DNA of 37,816 nucleotides, taken from a virus. Taxonomy: Duplodnaviria; Heunggongvirae; Uroviricota; Caudoviricetes. The position numbers and the translations under genes were made by a program. The notes below the pieces were generated by a model. The model ran no database searches. It worked only from the letters and a program-made list of their open reading frames with translations, and was not told the DNA's origin. The stretch is from positions 1 to 37,816 of the IMG/VR virus record IMGVR_UViG_2563366922_000008. The stretch is one strand, 5' to 3'. Shown in pieces: positions 28,289-36,459 of the stretch (positions are counted from its first letter, which is position 1; the number at the start of each line of letters is the position of its first letter).

Positions 28289-29641
<1,353 letters not shown>

Positions 29642-30639: not shown

Positions 30640-30679
30640 TGGTGGCCTTTATTTTTGGTATAAACAATATGGGGTAAAA

Positions 30680-31006
30680 ATGAAAGTTTTAATGGTTTAT
30701 GAAAATGTTCCAGAGTCGACTGAAATCTATATTTTTGATGCCAATGAAGATGAAGTTAACGATTTGAAATTGTCTCACGGCAATTACACAAATGCTAATT
30801 GTGATGAAAGTATCGAAAAAGCACTATCACGTGTTCTTGTCAGAATTAGTGATCCAGAACATTGTGATGATGATTGGCTTTCTTATTGTGGAGCGGTAAA
30901 AACTGATGCAGGAAAATGGAGTAAAAGTAAAGTTGATAACTCAACTCCAATCATTATGAAAGATAGCGATATTGAAATGGTAATAATAACCGGAATGATT
31001 ATGTAG
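30680..31006 (+). CDS. Hypothetical acidic Cys-containing protein (108 aa), AT-rich gene in the sieB slot
   Basis: ATG at 30680 with GGGG upstream; MKVLMVYENVPESTEIYIFDANEDEVNDLKLSHGNYTNANCDESIEKALSRVLVRISDPEHCDDDWLSYCGAVKTD...; G+C visibly lower than flanking genes. Confidence 0.55.
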   Translation: MKVLMVYENVPESTEIYIFDANEDEVNDLKLSHGNYTNANCDESIEKALSRVLVRISDPEHCDDDWLSYCGAVKTDAGKWSKSKVDNSTPIIMKDSDIEMVIITGMIM

Positions 31007-31050: not shown

Positions 31051-31112
31051 GGAGCAATGTCGCTCGTAACTAAACAGGAGCCGACTTGTTCTGATTATTG
31101 GAAATCTTCTTT

Positions 31113-31139
31113 GCCCTCCAGTGTGAGGGCATTTTTTTG
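31113..31139 (+). terminator. Rho-independent terminator (gccctc-cagtgtg-agggc + T7)
   Basis: GC-rich stem followed by attttttt on the plus strand, before the next RBS. Confidence 0.6.
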
Positions 31140-31150
31140 ACGGAGGAAAT

Positions 31151-31462
31151 ATGAAATTACGTGTCTGGCATATCCCGCAAGTACCTATGAAGCCGTTCAT
31201 TGTAGAAGTGGCAAGTGTTGAAGAGGGTGTTCGCCTGATGGACGCACTGGCTGATTATGACGCCTTTCAGTATGACAACAACATCAAGCCTGATTACTGC
31301 AATGCTAACGGCCTTGAGATGTGGGATGAGAGCCTTACCGATGAAGATTTATCAGAGATGGAGCTTACGGATCGCTGGGTAGATTGGTACAGCGAATGCC
31401 AATGTTACGACGACCCACGTAAATATATCGAAAGCCTGAAAGAAGAAACCTCAGCATCCTGA
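31151..31462 (+). CDS. Hypothetical highly acidic protein (103 aa)
   Basis: GGAGG RBS; MKLRVWHIPQVPMKPFIVEVASVEEGVRLMDALADYDAFQYDNNIKPDYCNANGLEMWDESLTDEDLSEMELTDRWVDWYSECQCYDDPRKYIESLKEETSAS; many D/E, few K/R. Confidence 0.55.
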   Translation: MKLRVWHIPQVPMKPFIVEVASVEEGVRLMDALADYDAFQYDNNIKPDYCNANGLEMWDESLTDEDLSEMELTDRWVDWYSECQCYDDPRKYIESLKEETSAS

Positions 31463-31497
31463 GCGCGGATTTGACGCATACAAATTAAGGAGGATAT

Positions 31498-32466
31498 ATG
31501 AGTGAAGTAACAGATTTAGTTGTTATTGAAAAAGCAAATGCAATGACTGTATTTCAGTCTGCCGACCAGATTGAAGAAATCCTTCAAAAGGTTGAACGTG
31601 AAGTTATGTCCTTTGTGCCTGATATCACAACGGCAAAGGGCAGAAAGGAGATCGCTTCTCTGGCGTATAAAGTTGCGCAGACGAAAACATATCTCGATGG
31701 TCTTGGCAAAGACCTTGTTGCTGAACTGAAGGAAATTCCAAAGCTAATTGATGCCAACCGCAAGACAGTGCGCGATCGCCTTGATGAACTGAAAGCCAAG
31801 GCACGCCAGCCTCTTACTGATTATGAAGAGGAACAGGCGCGGATTAAAGCCGAAGAAGAAGCTAAGGCAGCAGCTGAAGCTCTCGCAAGGCAAATTGAGT
31901 CTGACCATGAAATAGCGATTTTGATGGATCGCGAATTTGACCGCCAAAGAGAAGAGGAAAGACTCAAAGCGGAGCAGGAAAAGCGAGAGCATGAAGAACG
32001 CTTAAAAAGAGAAGCTGAAGAGAAAGCCAGAGCAGAAGCCGAAGCAAAGGCAAAAGCCGAAATTGAAGCAGCAGCAAGACGAGAAGCAGAGGCTAAGGCC
32101 GCAGCGGAACGTGCAGAGCGTGAACGCATTGAAGCCGAGCAACGAGCACAGCGCGAAGCAAAAGAGGCAGCAGAACGAGCTGAAAGAGAAAAGCAGGCGG
32201 CAATTGAAGCAGAACGCCGAAAAGCACAGGAGGAGGCTGAACGAATCCGGCGCGAGGCTGAAGCAAAAGAGCAAGCCAGAATAGCAGAAGAAAAAAGAAT
32301 CAAGGACGAAGAAGAGCGTAGAGCAAAGGATAAAGCTCACCGGAAAGAAGTAAATAACAAAATACTTGCTGACCTTATCAAGGTTGGCGCATCAGAAGAT
32401 GTTGCTAAAAATATCATAATAGCCATCGCAAAAGGCGAAGTATTCGCAACAAAAATAACCTACTAA
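31498..32466 (+). CDS. Hypothetical protein with long E/K/R/A-rich helical (single-alpha-helix or coiled-coil-like) region
   Basis: 322-aa ORF, AAGGAGG RBS; globular N-terminus, then about 180 aa of AEEEAKAAAEALARQ...EERLKAEQEKREHEERLKREAEEKARAEAEAKAKAEIEAAARREAEAKAAAERAERERIEAEQRAQREAKEAAERAEREKQ... Confidence 0.65.
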   Translation: MSEVTDLVVIEKANAMTVFQSADQIEEILQKVEREVMSFVPDITTAKGRKEIASLAYKVAQTKTYLDGLGKDLVAELKEIPKLIDANRKTVRDRLDELKAKARQPLTDYEEEQARIKAEEEAKAAAEALARQIESDHEIAILMDREFDRQREEERLKAEQEKREHEERLKREAEEKARAEAEAKAKAEIEAAARREAEAKAAAERAERERIEAEQRAQREAKEAAERAEREKQAAIEAERRKAQEEAERIRREAEAKEQARIAEEKRIKDEEERRAKDKAHRKEVNNKILADLIKVGASEDVAKNIIIAIAKGEVFATKITY

Positions 32467-32490: not shown

Positions 32491-32637
32491 ATGATTTACG
32501 CAATCGCGGGAGGCGCTCGCATGGGTGCCTTCCAACTAAATGAATCTTTACTTGAACGAATCACCCGTAAATTACGTGACGGATGGAAACGCCTTATCGA
32601 CATACTTAATCAGCCAGGAGTCCCCAAAAATGGATAA
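32491..32637 (+). CDS. cIII: cIII (FtsH/HflB inhibitor, stabiliser of cII)
   Basis: Hand-translated 48 aa: MIYAIAGGARMGAFQLNESLLERITRKLRDGWKRLIDILNQPGVPKNG, matches lambda cIII core; AAGGA RBS; absent from ORF table (<60 aa). Confidence 0.8.
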   Translation: MIYAIAGGARMGAFQLNESLLERITRKLRDGWKRLIDILNQPGVPKNG

Positions 32638-32743
32638 AACACTTATGGCTATCCAGACTAAATTCACTATCGCCGCTTTTATTGGCGATGAAAAGATGTT
32701 TCGTGAGGCCGTCGAAGCCTACAGAAAATGGAGGTCAAAATGA
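32630..32743 (+). CDS. kil: Kil-like host-killing (cell division inhibitor) protein
   Basis: Hand-translated 37 aa: MDKTLMAIQTKFTIAAFIGDEKMFREAVEAYRKWRSK; resembles lambda Kil N-terminus as recalled; start overlaps cIII end. Confidence 0.55.
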   Translation: MDKTLMAIQTKFTIAAFIGDEKMFREAVEAYRKWRSK

Positions 32744-32936: not shown

Positions 32937-33644
32937 ATGGATTTGAACAAATTCGATGAGCCATTCAGCCCTGAAGATATCGAATGGCGAATACAGCAAA
33001 GCGGTAAAACACGCGATGGCAAGGTGTGGGCTATGGTGCTGGCTTATGTCACGAACCGGGCAATCATGAAACGCCTGGACGATGTTTGCGGCAAATCAGG
33101 ATGGCGCAATGAATACCGCGATATTCCCAACAACGGCGGAGTTGAATGCGGCATATCAATCAAGATTGATTCCGAATGGGTAACCAAATGGGATGCCGCT
33201 GAAAACACGCAGGTAGAAGCCGTCAAAGGTGGTCGTTCCGGTGCAATGAAGCGCGCTGCCGTTCAATGGGGAATCGGTCGGTATCTGTATAACCTTGAGG
33301 AAGGTTTCGCACAAACATCTCTCGATAAAAAGCAGGGGTGGCACAGGGCAAAACTGAAGGATGGAACAGGGTTTTACTGGCTCCCTCCAACGCTGCCCGG
33401 CTGGGCAATCCCAGCATCAGATAACAAACCATCACCAGAAAATACCAACCAGAAATCTCCATCGGTTGACTGCGAACAAATCCTGAAAGACTTCAGCGAT
33501 TATGCATCGAAAGAAACTGATAAGAAAAAACTCATCGAGCGTTATCAGCGTGACTGGCAATTAATGGCTGGCAATGAGGAGGCGCAGGCTAAATGCGTTC
33601 AGGTAATGAACATCAGAGTTAACGAACTAAAACAGGCGGCATAA
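32937..33644 (+). CDS. Single-strand annealing protein, Rad52/Sak-like
   Basis: 235-aa ORF; ...GKVWAMVLAYVTNRAIMKRLDDVCGKSGWRNEY...GGRSGAMKRAAVQWGIGRYLYNLEEGF typical of Rad52-family phage SSAPs; sits with SSB in the recombination module. Confidence 0.7.
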   Translation: MDLNKFDEPFSPEDIEWRIQQSGKTRDGKVWAMVLAYVTNRAIMKRLDDVCGKSGWRNEYRDIPNNGGVECGISIKIDSEWVTKWDAAENTQVEAVKGGRSGAMKRAAVQWGIGRYLYNLEEGFAQTSLDKKQGWHRAKLKDGTGFYWLPPTLPGWAIPASDNKPSPENTNQKSPSVDCEQILKDFSDYASKETDKKKLIERYQRDWQLMAGNEEAQAKCVQVMNIRVNELKQAA

Positions 33645-34118
33645 ATGGCAAGCAGAGGCGTAAATAAGGTGATCATTATTGGTCGCCTTGGGCATGATCC
33701 AGAAATCAGATATTCACCATCAGGAACGGCATTTGCAAACCTTACAGTTGCTACGTCAGAACAATGGCGTGATAAGCAAACTGGAGAGCAAAAGGAGCAG
33801 ACGGAGTGGCACCGCGTGGTAATGAGCGGGAAACTGGCAGAAATTGCCAGCGAATATCTGCGAAAAGGCTCTGAGGTTTATCTTGAAGGAAAATTGCGGA
33901 CAAGAAAATGGCAGGATCAAAGCGGACAGGATAGGTTCACTACCGAAGTCATCGTGGGCGTTGGTGGAACCATGCAAATGCTTGGTGGCAAGCAAGGAGG
34001 CAATGAACAGTCTTCACCTCAGCGAAATAATGGTCATCAACAAAGACAGCAACCTCAGCAGCATGGAAATCACAGCGAACCACCTATGAACTTCGACGAT
34101 TCGGATATTCCGTTCTAG
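33645..34118 (+). CDS. ssb: Single-stranded DNA-binding protein
   Basis: 157-aa [62 protein letters not shown]..., Gly/Gln-rich linker and acidic tail ending DDSDIPF. Confidence 0.9.
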
Positions 34119-34127
34119 GAGCTGAAT

Positions 34128-34607
34128 ATGAAAATCTGCTCAAGATGCCATCAACAGAAGGAAGAAAGGGACTTTCAAATCAGAAGAGCATCCAGAGATG
34201 GATTAACTGCCGCTTGCCGGGCTTGCCTGGCTGAATATGACAAAGAGCGCGCGGGATTGCCACATCGAGTATCAGCAAGGAGAGAATATCAATCATCGGA
34301 ACGCGGCAGAGAACGGTGTAACGCAGCCAAAAAGCGGTTCATTCAGAGCAACCCATGGAAAAGAAAAGCCCACATCATCGTGGGTAATTTTTTGCGCGAC
34401 GGTAAGCTAATCCGACCACCACAATGTGAGTGCTGCGGATCAGAATGTAAACCACAGGCGCACCACTGCGACTACAGCAAACCAACCGATGTGATGTGGC
34501 TCTGCAAGTCATGTCATGTCGAGTGGCACAAACATAACAAACCTATCTACCCAGACGAGGAGCCAGTAACTCTCCCCTTCCCTCGTCACGCTATTCACGC
34601 AATTTAA
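34128..34607 (+). CDS. HNH endonuclease-domain zinc-finger protein
   Basis: 159-aa ORF; N-terminal CSRC...CRAC and C-terminal CECCGSECKPQAHHCDYSKPTDVMWLCKSCHVEWHK (HNH pattern). Confidence 0.65.
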   Translation: MKICSRCHQQKEERDFQIRRASRDGLTAACRACLAEYDKERAGLPHRVSARREYQSSERGRERCNAAKKRFIQSNPWKRKAHIIVGNFLRDGKLIRPPQCECCGSECKPQAHHCDYSKPTDVMWLCKSCHVEWHKHNKPIYPDEEPVTLPFPRHAIHAI

Positions 34608-34620
34608 TCAGGAGAAAATC

Positions 34621-34914
34621 ATGCCAGCGCCTCTGTATGGTGCGGATGACCCGCGCCGCTGTTCCGGCAATTCCGTATCGGAGGTGCTGGATAAATTCAG
34701 AAAAAACTACGATCGGATAATGTCGCTACCGCAGGAAACGAAAGAGGAAAAGGAATTTCGCCACTGTATATGGCTTGCAGCGAAAGAAGAACGCGAGCGA
34801 ATTTACCAGACATCAATCCGACCATTCCGCAAAGCCACATATACCCACTTCCCTGAAATTGACCCGCGCCTGCGTAATTACCGCTCACGCTATGGCGCTA
34901 TCAGTAATGACTGA
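34621..34914 (+). CDS. Hypothetical 97-aa protein
   Basis: AGGAG RBS; [63 protein letters not shown]... Confidence 0.5.
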
Positions 34915-35389: not shown

Positions 35390-35968
35390 ATGAACAAGAT
35401 TGACTATCAGGCACTGCGTGAAGCGGCGGAACGTGCAATTCCAGCAATGGAACGCCTGTTAATGTTGCCAGCTGATGATGATTTGTTAAGTGAACAGGAA
35501 CTTAAAGATTACGGTGTGGATATTGATGCGCTCAACGCCTTCAAATTTCTGGCCGGACCAGAAACCGTGCTGGCACTACTGGATGAACGGGAAAGAAACC
35601 AGCAATACATCAAACGCCGCGACCAGGAGAACGAGGAAATTGCGCTAACGGTAGGGAAGCTGCGTGTTGAGCTGGAAGCCGCAGAGAAGCGCATTGCAGA
35701 ACTGGAAACACGGGAAATAAAACCAGCCAAAGGTGAAGTTCTTGTCGTTGTTTCTGGTTTTACTGGTTGCGGAAAAAGCGCCATTGCCGGGGAAATAGAA
35801 ATTGCGATGAAGGCTATTGGTGTACCGGTTCAGAGAACTAATGGCGATGCGGAAAAGCGCATGACAGGAGCTGACTGGCTGACAGCGATTGAGATGTACA
35901 AACCAACAGTGCGCATCGTGGAAGTTAATGTGCCACGCGCCGCTGGCATCAAGGAGGAGTCTGAGTGA
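35390..35968 (+). CDS. Ead/Ea22-like protein
   Basis: 192-aa ORF MNKIDYQALREAAERAIPAMERLLM...KLRVELEAAEKRIAELETRE..., N-terminus and coiled-coil typical of lambdoid Ea22-like proteins as recalled. Confidence 0.6.
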   Translation: MNKIDYQALREAAERAIPAMERLLMLPADDDLLSEQELKDYGVDIDALNAFKFLAGPETVLALLDERERNQQYIKRRDQENEEIALTVGKLRVELEAAEKRIAELETREIKPAKGEVLVVVSGFTGCGKSAIAGEIEIAMKAIGVPVQRTNGDAEKRMTGADWLTAIEMYKPTVRIVEVNVPRAAGIKEESE

Positions 35969-36459
35969 TGGTCATTTCACCTATAACGCTGAAAGCGGCG
36001 CAGGAATTTATCGCACAGCACCACCGACACAATAAACCACCAGTGGGGCATAAATTCAGCATTGGTCTGAGAAATAATGCCGGAGAATTGATAGGTGTGG
36101 CGACAGCTGGTCGACCTGTTGCACGACATTTCGACGATGGATTAACGCTTGAAGTAAATCGCACATGTACCACAGGAGAACGCAACGCTAACAGCGCGCT
36201 TTATGGTGCTATCTGGCGGGCAGCAAAAGCTATGGGTTATCAACGTTGTATTACGTACACCCAGGCAGATGAATCAGGAGCATCTCTTCGCGCAGTTGGT
36301 TTTGTTCGTGTGAAAGAGCTTCCTCCAAGAAAAAGCTGGGCGGAATCAAGCGTCGCCTTGCGGAGTAAACGCGATCCGGTCGGAAACGGTGGTATTCCTC
36401 GTGTGCTCTGGGAAATCAGGAGAATGAGTACCACTGGCATTCGCATCAAAGGAGAGTGA
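35968..36459 (+). CDS. Hypothetical 163-aa protein
   Basis: ATG at 35968 overlapping previous stop (TGATG), AGGAGG upstream; MVISPITLKAAQEFIAQHHRHNKPPVGHKFSIGLRNNAGELIGVATAGRPVARHFDDGLTLEVNRTCTTG...; possible acyltransferase-like fold is only a guess. Confidence 0.5.
   Translation: MVISPITLKAAQEFIAQHHRHNKPPVGHKFSIGLRNNAGELIGVATAGRPVARHFDDGLTLEVNRTCTTGERNANSALYGAIWRAAKAMGYQRCITYTQADESGASLRAVGFVRVKELPPRKSWAESSVALRSKRDPVGNGGIPRVLWEIRRMSTTGIRIKGE

Follow-up and report, generated by a model that had tools for sequence, protein, structure and literature searches.

A three-part early protein of a P22/Sf6-like prophage, with a predicted ER/K single alpha-helix, and its family near phage recombination genes

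The window analyzed here is a 37,816-nucleotide viral sequence (Caudoviricetes; IMG/VR record IMGVR_UViG_2563366922_000008, taken at its full length), which represents a P22/Sf6-like lambdoid prophage with its leftward early operon on the plus strand. The gene under study is located in this operon (positions 31498 to 32466, plus strand). It has an ATG start and 322 codons followed by a stop, and a strong Shine-Dalgarno sequence, AAGGAGG (31487 to 31493, plus strand), was identified by direct reading 4 nt 5' of the ATG. A first-pass annotation made from the sequence alone had described the product as a 322-amino-acid protein with a long segment rich in Glu, Lys, Arg, and Ala. The list of open reading frames (ORFs) and the amino acid composition confirmed this description, and the peptide that it quoted is present as written.

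The 5' part of the operon contains, in order, N (30034), ral (30439), a gene of unknown function (30677), and a homologue of P22 superinfection exclusion gene 17 (31151 to 31462; Pfam GP17, E value of 2.3e-55), which is the upstream neighbor of the gene under study. Directly downstream is a cIII-like gene (32491 to 32637), located as CIII is after gene 33 in the Sf6 record, followed by the cell-division inhibitor gene kil (32540 to 32743; Pfam Lambda_Kil, E value of 2.6e-20) and a small gene similar to HK97 gene 42. The remainder of the operon encodes a Rad52-type single-strand annealing protein (32937 to 33644; Pfam Rad52_Rad22, E value of 8.5e-26; phrog_1097), a phage single-strand DNA-binding protein (SSB; 33645 to 34118; Pfam SSB, E value of 1.1e-38), an endonuclease-family protein of the recombination module (34128 to 34607; phrog_2340 "endonuclease," E value of 2.6e-47), and Abc2, a P22-type anti-RecBCD protein (34621 to 34914; Pfam Anti-RecBCD_p2, E value of 4e-63). 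All of these genes are on the plus strand, and abc2 is located 2.1 kb downstream of the 322-codon gene, with five genes between the two. The endonuclease-family ORF had no Pfam match when scanned alone and is HNH-type by its cluster: Pfam HNH_3 matched 2 of 146 pooled proteins encoded downstream of family members, a pool that included this ORF and its cluster partner. As the first-pass annotation had noted, lambda has no such gene at this position; ea10 lies there between ral and cIII.

The gene is not new, since it is already catalogued as Sf6 gene 33, D3 Orf53, and phi80 agt. Its DNA is 97.8% to 98.8% identical to genes of 35 sequenced phages, among them Sf6, CUS-3, HK544, mEp043, mEp213, mEp234, IME10, and Stx1a phages, and the gene is carried by 530 of 5,426 complete Escherichia coli genomes. 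Sf6 gene 33 (98.7% nucleotide identity; "similar to phage D3 Orf53" in its record) is the same gene in the same context, with nothing of substance different. Orf53 of Pseudomonas phage D3 has the same plan, is 354 amino acids long, and has an N-terminal module ~55% identical to that of the window protein. The profile of phrog_1376, a PHROG with no assigned function, matched the full length of the protein (residues 1 to 322; E value of 4.4e-109). When the whole protein and each of its ends were scanned against Pfam, NCBIfam, and PADLOC, nothing exceeded the threshold, and the matches of 116 relatives in Pfam were limited to scattered low-complexity ones. In the consulted portion of a 2025 survey of lambdoid recombination modules, the gene is not mentioned.

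Database entries name the family members "hypothetical," "coiled-coil domain-containing," or, very often, "cell envelope biogenesis protein TolA." The last name, which NCBI gives to many copies, would make the product a TolA-like envelope protein, and its E/K/A-rich helical composition does resemble that of the TolA stalk. This composition is all that the two share: the protein scored 8.7 bits against the TIGR02794 tolA_full model (cutoff, 59.45), no Pfam TolA domain was found at its C terminus or elsewhere, and there is no hydrophobic membrane anchor (the maximal hydrophobic fraction in any 20-residue window is 0.45). Furthermore, the gene is an early gene of a prophage and not part of a tol-pal operon. 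The name stems from low-complexity similarity only, and we consider the envelope assignment almost certainly wrong.

An exhaustive phmmer search with the N-terminal module retrieved 4,910 cluster representatives (50% identity clusters), 3,367 of them with E values of 1e-10 or lower. In the best 150 of the 4,910 matches, the module is at or near the N terminus of proteins that are mostly ~250 to 430 amino acids long. The hosts include Enterobacterales, Vibrio, Pseudomonas, Acinetobacter, Achromobacter, Dyella, and several alphaproteobacteria. A common plan recurs in nearly all full-length members and consists of an N-terminal module, a charged segment (62% to 88% E/K/R/A/Q/D in most members), and a C-terminal module.

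The N-terminal module of the window protein (residues 1 to 115; 31498 to 31842, plus strand) was delimited by alignments, phmmer matches, and AlphaFold2 secondary structure. It is predicted to comprise a short extended segment (DLVVIE) and helices at residues 12 to 38 and from residue 46 on, and it carries the motif FVPDxxTAKGRKEIAS...KTYLDGxGK...K..PK.ID..RK..RD.LD.L....R.PLT.WE., in which R49, G70, K78, D85, R88, and E110 are invariant across 116 sequences. The first-pass annotation had assumed a globular domain here; when modeled alone, the N-terminal part is all-helical and not obviously globular. The C-terminal module of ~45 amino acids (residues ~278 to 322; 32329 to 32463, plus strand), seen in alignments and in the C-terminal sequences of 150 representatives, has the consensus D-x-x-H-R-x-x-I-N...L...G-L-x-E-x-x-A-K...A-I-A-x-G-x-I-x-x-V-x-I-x-Y, with a nearly invariant terminal Tyr and a predicted helix at residues 300 to 311.

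Two further observations concern this family. Many members outside the close enterobacterial group have an extra insert of ~60 to 70 residues after PLTxWE, with a conserved "...IDDSWxEF..." signature, which suggests an additional small helical subdomain in the distant members. In addition, the gene is often split into two ORFs (138 and 180 or 148 and 214 amino acids) or truncated in its low-complexity part, both in viral contigs and among many database proteins labeled "partial"; such copies are frameshifts or assembly breaks.

Structural searches did not connect either end with a known fold. Sequence and profile searches of the PDB with the whole protein gave only compositional matches (Zuotin, ATP synthase b, and radial spoke proteins), and a PDB profile search with the N-terminal module gave nothing. 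Foldseek comparison of the N-terminal model with the PDB yielded no match with an E value below 6, and the full model matched only members of its own family among viral predicted structures. The C-terminal profile matched designed helical repeats (best E value, 1.7e-05) and, nonsignificantly, UBA and RuvA-domain-III sequences (E values of 0.14 to 1.1), which we treat as a lead only. When the C-terminal module was searched alone for other domain architectures, only fragments of the same gene were found.

Between the two modules, the E/K/R/A-rich segment (residues 106 to 285; 31813 to 32352, plus strand) was defined by its composition, by the statistics of charged residues four positions apart (i+4), and by AlphaFold2. 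Glu, Lys, Arg, and Ala together make up 75.8% of residues 106 to 295 and 81.5% of residues 150 to 295, compared with 37% of residues 1 to 105. Several 20-residue windows reach 95% to 100%, and Ala alone accounts for 24% of the segment. No Gly or Pro is present in residues 106 to 295. AlphaFold2, run with an alignment of 116 sequences, gave a mean predicted local distance difference test score (pLDDT) of 84.8 and one unbroken helix spanning residues 81 to 295, over which block-mean pLDDT values were 82 to 97 (above 90 for residues 111 to 220). Helices at residues 12 to 20, 22 to 38, and 46 to 74 precede this long helix, and the short helix near the C terminus follows it.

When residues 106 to 285 were compared with shuffles of the same residues, opposite charges were enriched at i+4 (z = +4.5 for E to K/R and z = +6.7 for K/R to E) and like-charge pairs were depleted (z = -4.8), while spacings of 1 to 3 and 5 to 7 residues were unremarkable. 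In the 116 diverged relatives, the length of the charged segment ranges from 61 to 223 residues (median, 144) and its sequence is poorly conserved, but the i+4 enrichment exceeds a z value of 2 in 96% of them (median z, 4.5). Bulky hydrophobic residues constitute 6.6% of residues 150 to 285, the ER/K core (31945 to 32352, plus strand), where they are spaced 12 to 25 residues apart. The only hydrophobic cluster of the long helix is a conserved patch at residues 132 to 149 (31891 to 31944, plus strand; QIESDHEIAILMDREFDR, with ESDHEIAILMDREFDR as its characteristic sequence), which appears as ExDHExALLMNxxFDR in alignments. If fully helical, the core of 136 residues would measure ~20 nm, and the predicted helix as a whole ~32 nm.

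The segment also varies in length among close alleles, which encode proteins of 245, 275, 290, 300, 309, 322, and 333 amino acids; a check for such polymorphism had been proposed in the first-pass annotation. The indels all map to residues 128 to 237 (31879 to 32208, plus strand) and measure 11, 13, 22, 29, 32, 36, 47, and 48 residues, none of which is a multiple of 7, although several miss such a multiple by a single residue. A DNA tandem-repeat array was considered and rejected, as the region contains no true tandem repeat, only short imperfect repeats at the codon level. The 245-amino-acid allele, common in E. coli and Salmonella, lacks residues 128 to 156, including the conserved ESDHEIAILMDREFDR patch, and residues 167 to 214. 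This allele is a ready-made natural comparison for the importance of the patch and of the helix length.

The first-pass annotation had left two options for the charged segment, a stable single alpha-helix or a long coiled coil. As a parallel or antiparallel dimeric coiled coil, comparable to Ala-rich parts of tropomyosin or to the TolA stalk, the long helix would make the protein a dimeric scaffold. Ala could then fill the core positions and the conserved hydrophobic patch could nucleate the dimer, and the AlphaFold2 monomer model cannot separate the two arrangements. However, no hydrophobic periodicity of 3.5 or 3.6 residues was detected, even with Ala counted (the power was below the shuffle null), and the charge pattern peaks at i+4 alone, which is an intrahelical spacing. 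Hydrophobic residues do not occupy the a and d heptad positions of a canonical coiled coil, the bulky ones being too far apart in the core, and indels of 11, 13, 22, 32, and 47 residues break the heptad register. We therefore consider the dimeric coiled coil unlikely.

Classic ER/K single alpha-helix (SAH) domains are found in myosin VI/X and caldesmon. With these, the window protein shares a very high content of Glu, Lys, and Arg, opposite charges at i/i+4 beyond what the composition gives, no hydrophobic seam, no Gly or Pro, and a prediction as one long isolated, unbroken helix linking two modules. It differs in that it has more Ala (24%), is long (136 to 215 residues) compared with these examples, and is putatively monomeric. 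Because of the i+4 pairing, the lack of periodicity, the few hydrophobic residues, the absence of Gly and Pro, and the nonheptad indels taken together, we favor a predicted ER/K single alpha-helix rather than a coiled coil, conserved as a physical property.

The composition of the segment also accounts for two ORFs on the minus strand, at 31821 to 32303 (160 amino acids; a Ser/Ala/Arg-rich low-complexity translation) and at 32002 to 32340 (112 amino acids; Phe/Cys/Leu/Ser-rich, aligned with the sense codons). Both are compositional artefacts, as the first-pass annotation had held, and neither has a Pfam match. Long antisense ORFs arise because the sense codons that create antisense stops (TTA, CTA, and TCA) are almost absent, occurring once in residues 106 to 295. 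Shuffling the sense codons of these residues gave antisense ORFs of 163 ± 44 amino acids, and 91% of the shuffles reached 112 amino acids.

A translated search with the N-terminal 115 residues led to phi80 (Lula) gene agt. Its product (GenBank AFV29176.1) and the window protein are both 322 amino acids long, are 51% identical from end to end (334 columns; BLASTP E value of 8e-66; only ~40% in the N-terminal module), and share the three-part plan and the slot at the head of the recombination module of the pL operon. The GenBank note on agt reads "anti-toxin for Gam; Mog (modifier of Gam)," and that on the adjacent gamL reads "host RecBCD/SbcCD enzymes inhibitor; toxic without Mog." Nothing further on these genes was found in text searches. 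In phi80 the gene order is agt, gamL, recT, and exo, whereas in the window the gene is followed by cIII and kil and then by the genes for the Rad52-type annealing protein, SSB, the endonuclease-family protein, and Abc2.

The neighborhood of the family was examined in 53 diverse loci from viral contigs, species-representative genomes, and annotated phages. Genes were called with the family ORF forced, and the next three same-strand genes encoding at least 100 amino acids were classified; the calling is crude and the sample nonrandom. A recognized recombination gene was among these three genes in 44 of the 53 loci, which span Enterobacterales, Pseudomonas, Achromobacter, Dyella, and alphaproteobacteria. 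An annealing protein was encoded there in 33 loci (ERF in 12, RecT in 9, Sak4/AAA_24 in 8, and Rad52 in 4), and the 146 downstream proteins included YqaJ exonuclease 21 times and SSB 19 times. In three more loci, ERF was encoded just upstream of the family gene. Among the six loci without a recombination gene, two are truncated fragments of a gene, and a third lies at the end of its contig. In Pseudomonas phage D3 the family gene overlaps the start of erf, and in Vibrio phage BT-1011 the order is reversed (annealing protein, SSB, and family gene) with the genes still adjacent. Upstream neighbors vary by locus; the recombination genes downstream persist from one bacterial class to the next. The association with recombination modules thus survives changes of host class, annealing-protein family, and gene order. 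This link, the conserved C-terminal module, and the existing catalogue entries had been overlooked in the first-pass annotation.

That persistence also bears on the possibility that the gene is a superinfection exclusion or antidefense accessory gene unrelated to recombination, like the upstream ral and gene 17. Such a gene could be expected where this one lies, with ral and the gene 17 homologue nearby in the variable accessory region that extends from N to cIII, but PADLOC gave no match and it is the upstream neighbors that change while the recombination genes remain. We judge an antidefense role very unlikely.

A survey of Firmicutes phages reported that Mu-Gam-like, Sipho_Gp157, DUF2483, or DUF1351 genes precede erf-ssb and sak4 and suggested analogous functions for them (PMC8093625). 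The window protein could accordingly be a DNA-end-binding or DNA-end-protecting factor, the Proteobacteria-phage counterpart of these four gene types, since in phages of Proteobacteria it is the window family that occupies the corresponding slot. In Oenococcus phage phi9805, a DUF1351 gene is directly 5' of sak4-ssb. DUF1351 (PF07083) proteins of Firmicutes phages are ~300 amino acids long, adjoin erf, sak4, or recT genes (PMC8093625), and resemble the window family in having, at the N terminus, a basic helix with a K/R-rich motif and then "P...F/W-E"; a stripe of invariant Lys and Arg is likewise present in the N-terminal module of the window family. They differ in having no long ER/K segment and a different C terminus. 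Comparison by hhalign of the family alignment with an alignment of seven DUF1351 proteins from annotated phages was collinear over 97 columns, but its probability was only 2.6% (P = 0.018) and fell to 0.8% for the N-terminal alignment alone. This is nonsignificant and not evidence of homology. The DUF1351 Pfam model matched neither the protein nor its N-terminal part at E values up to 10 and none of the 116 relatives at E values up to 0.01, and the Pfam models for Mu Gam and Gp157 likewise matched none of the 116. No DUF1351 was found in Staphylococcus phage 80alpha, Lactococcus phage TP901-1, or Streptococcus phage O1205. The shared location next to annealing-protein genes is an analogous position, not homology. 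In one family locus, a Sipho_Gp157 gene is present as well, within the three genes that follow, which means that neither gene simply replaces the other, and the Foldseek searches (N-terminal model against the PDB and full model against viral structures) detected no DNA-binding fold. A role as a DNA-end factor has, in our estimate, a small chance of being correct.

Some other features of the window were recorded. The 109-amino-acid ORF between ral and the gene 17 homologue (30677 to 31003, plus strand) matched only phrog_4658, of unknown function, and was negative in Pfam and PADLOC. A terminator-like hairpin with a T-run (TGCCCTCCAGTGTGAGGGCA TTTTTTT; 31112 to 31131, plus strand) is located just 5' of the gene 17 homologue. 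No terminator-like site was found directly 5' of the 322-codon gene, although the Sf6 record annotates the tL2A terminator there. The cI-like repressor gene (28608 to 29240) is directly followed by an ORF (29165 to 29641, plus strand) that was negative in Pfam and PADLOC and in which an internal ATG at 29237 would give a signal-peptide-like N terminus; the ORF lies where lambda has rexAB and may encode a secreted accessory product that the lysogen expresses. A 164-amino-acid ORF (35965 to 36459, plus strand) showed a weak match to the Mom family (E value of 6.3e-05; 23.2 bits, below the 27.1-bit cutoff).

The identity of the 322-codon gene, the architecture of its family, the signature of the helix, and the neighborhood are settled. 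From these, we propose that the product is a cytoplasmic accessory protein or adaptor that serves the recombination and host-nuclease-control module and whose two conserved ends are held apart by the ER/K helix; we regard this proposal as evenly poised. The product is an early protein of the leftward (pL) operon, encoded by the first gene of the recombination module. Its N-terminal helical module (~115 amino acids) and C-terminal module (~45 amino acids) would be joined by an ER/K-type single alpha-helix stabilized by i/i+4 salt bridges between Glu and Lys or Arg and not by a hydrophobic seam. As judged from its sequence, the charged segment may act as a rigid spacer keeping the two ends ~20 to 30 nm apart. 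Both ends would be binding sites, and the protein would modulate recombination and host nucleases from the cytoplasm, in keeping with the annotation of the phi80 homologue as neutralizing the toxicity of the RecBCD/SbcCD inhibitor GamL. Which partners are bound, and that the protein works as an adaptor or tether, are points that we infer.

Several points weigh against this proposal. Any sequence of this kind is drawn as one helix in AlphaFold2 monomer models, which do not exclude a dimer, and neither end module resembles solved or viral predicted folds, so that "binding module" is an assumption. The order of lambdoid genes is conserved for historical reasons, and synteny among enterobacterial phages is therefore weak evidence alone. 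The sole functional statement for the family is the GenBank note on the phi80 homologue; tblastn with GamL and lambda Gam found neither gamL nor gam in the window, and known anti-RecBCD genes were recognizable in the fetched sequence of only 8 of the 53 loci.

The same observations bear on a narrower explanation, in which the protein has one dedicated task and no wider role, namely to act as antitoxin to, or modifier of, a Gam-type host-nuclease inhibitor, in line with the annotation of phi80 agt. Besides the wording of the phi80 record, the five loci that contain Gam or GamL (lambda-type Gam in two and phi80-type GamL in three) speak for it, as the inhibitor gene is in each case the very next gene and directly follows or overlaps the family gene. 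Yet the anti-RecBCD gene of the window is the distant abc2, and in 45 of the 53 loci no Gam, GamL, or Abc2 was recognizable in the fetched sequence, even though the family gene adjoins an annealing-protein gene. Since anti-RecBCD genes were recognized in so few loci, a Gam-specific role cannot explain the whole family, and we consider this explanation quite unlikely. Where Gam is present, it overlaps the end of the family gene, and GamL starts 8 nt after the stop; this arrangement suggests translational coupling.

More broadly than the adaptor proposed for the window, the family might be a general and unrecognized component of the recombination modules of temperate phages of alpha-, beta-, and gammaproteobacteria, in which what is selected is not a sequence but a physical trait, namely an ER/K helix of tunable length that works as a tether or ruler; the family might also be a very distant relative of DUF1351 of Firmicutes phages. 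This joint reading is tentative and, we think, rather doubtful. The helix would then set the distance or the effective concentration between partners held by the N- and C-terminal modules; candidates are the annealing protein or SSB, host nucleases (for example, RecBCD or SbcCD), and a DNA end. Natural length variants of 245 to 333 amino acids allow the role of helix length to be tested.

As a find in this window the gene is ordinary; experimental work on the family as such would be reasonable. About 1 in 10 complete E. coli genomes carries the gene and there are thousands of related clusters, yet the family has no Pfam entry and no assigned function, and many records give it the misleading name "TolA." If its place in the recombination module is real, a common component is missing from maps of phage recombination systems and of the recombineering toolkits derived from them, and phi80 agt, the only genetic hint, would gain a broader context. 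If the predicted helix is real, the family would also provide a clear phage case in which an ER/K single alpha-helix has been conserved to act as a physical spacer.

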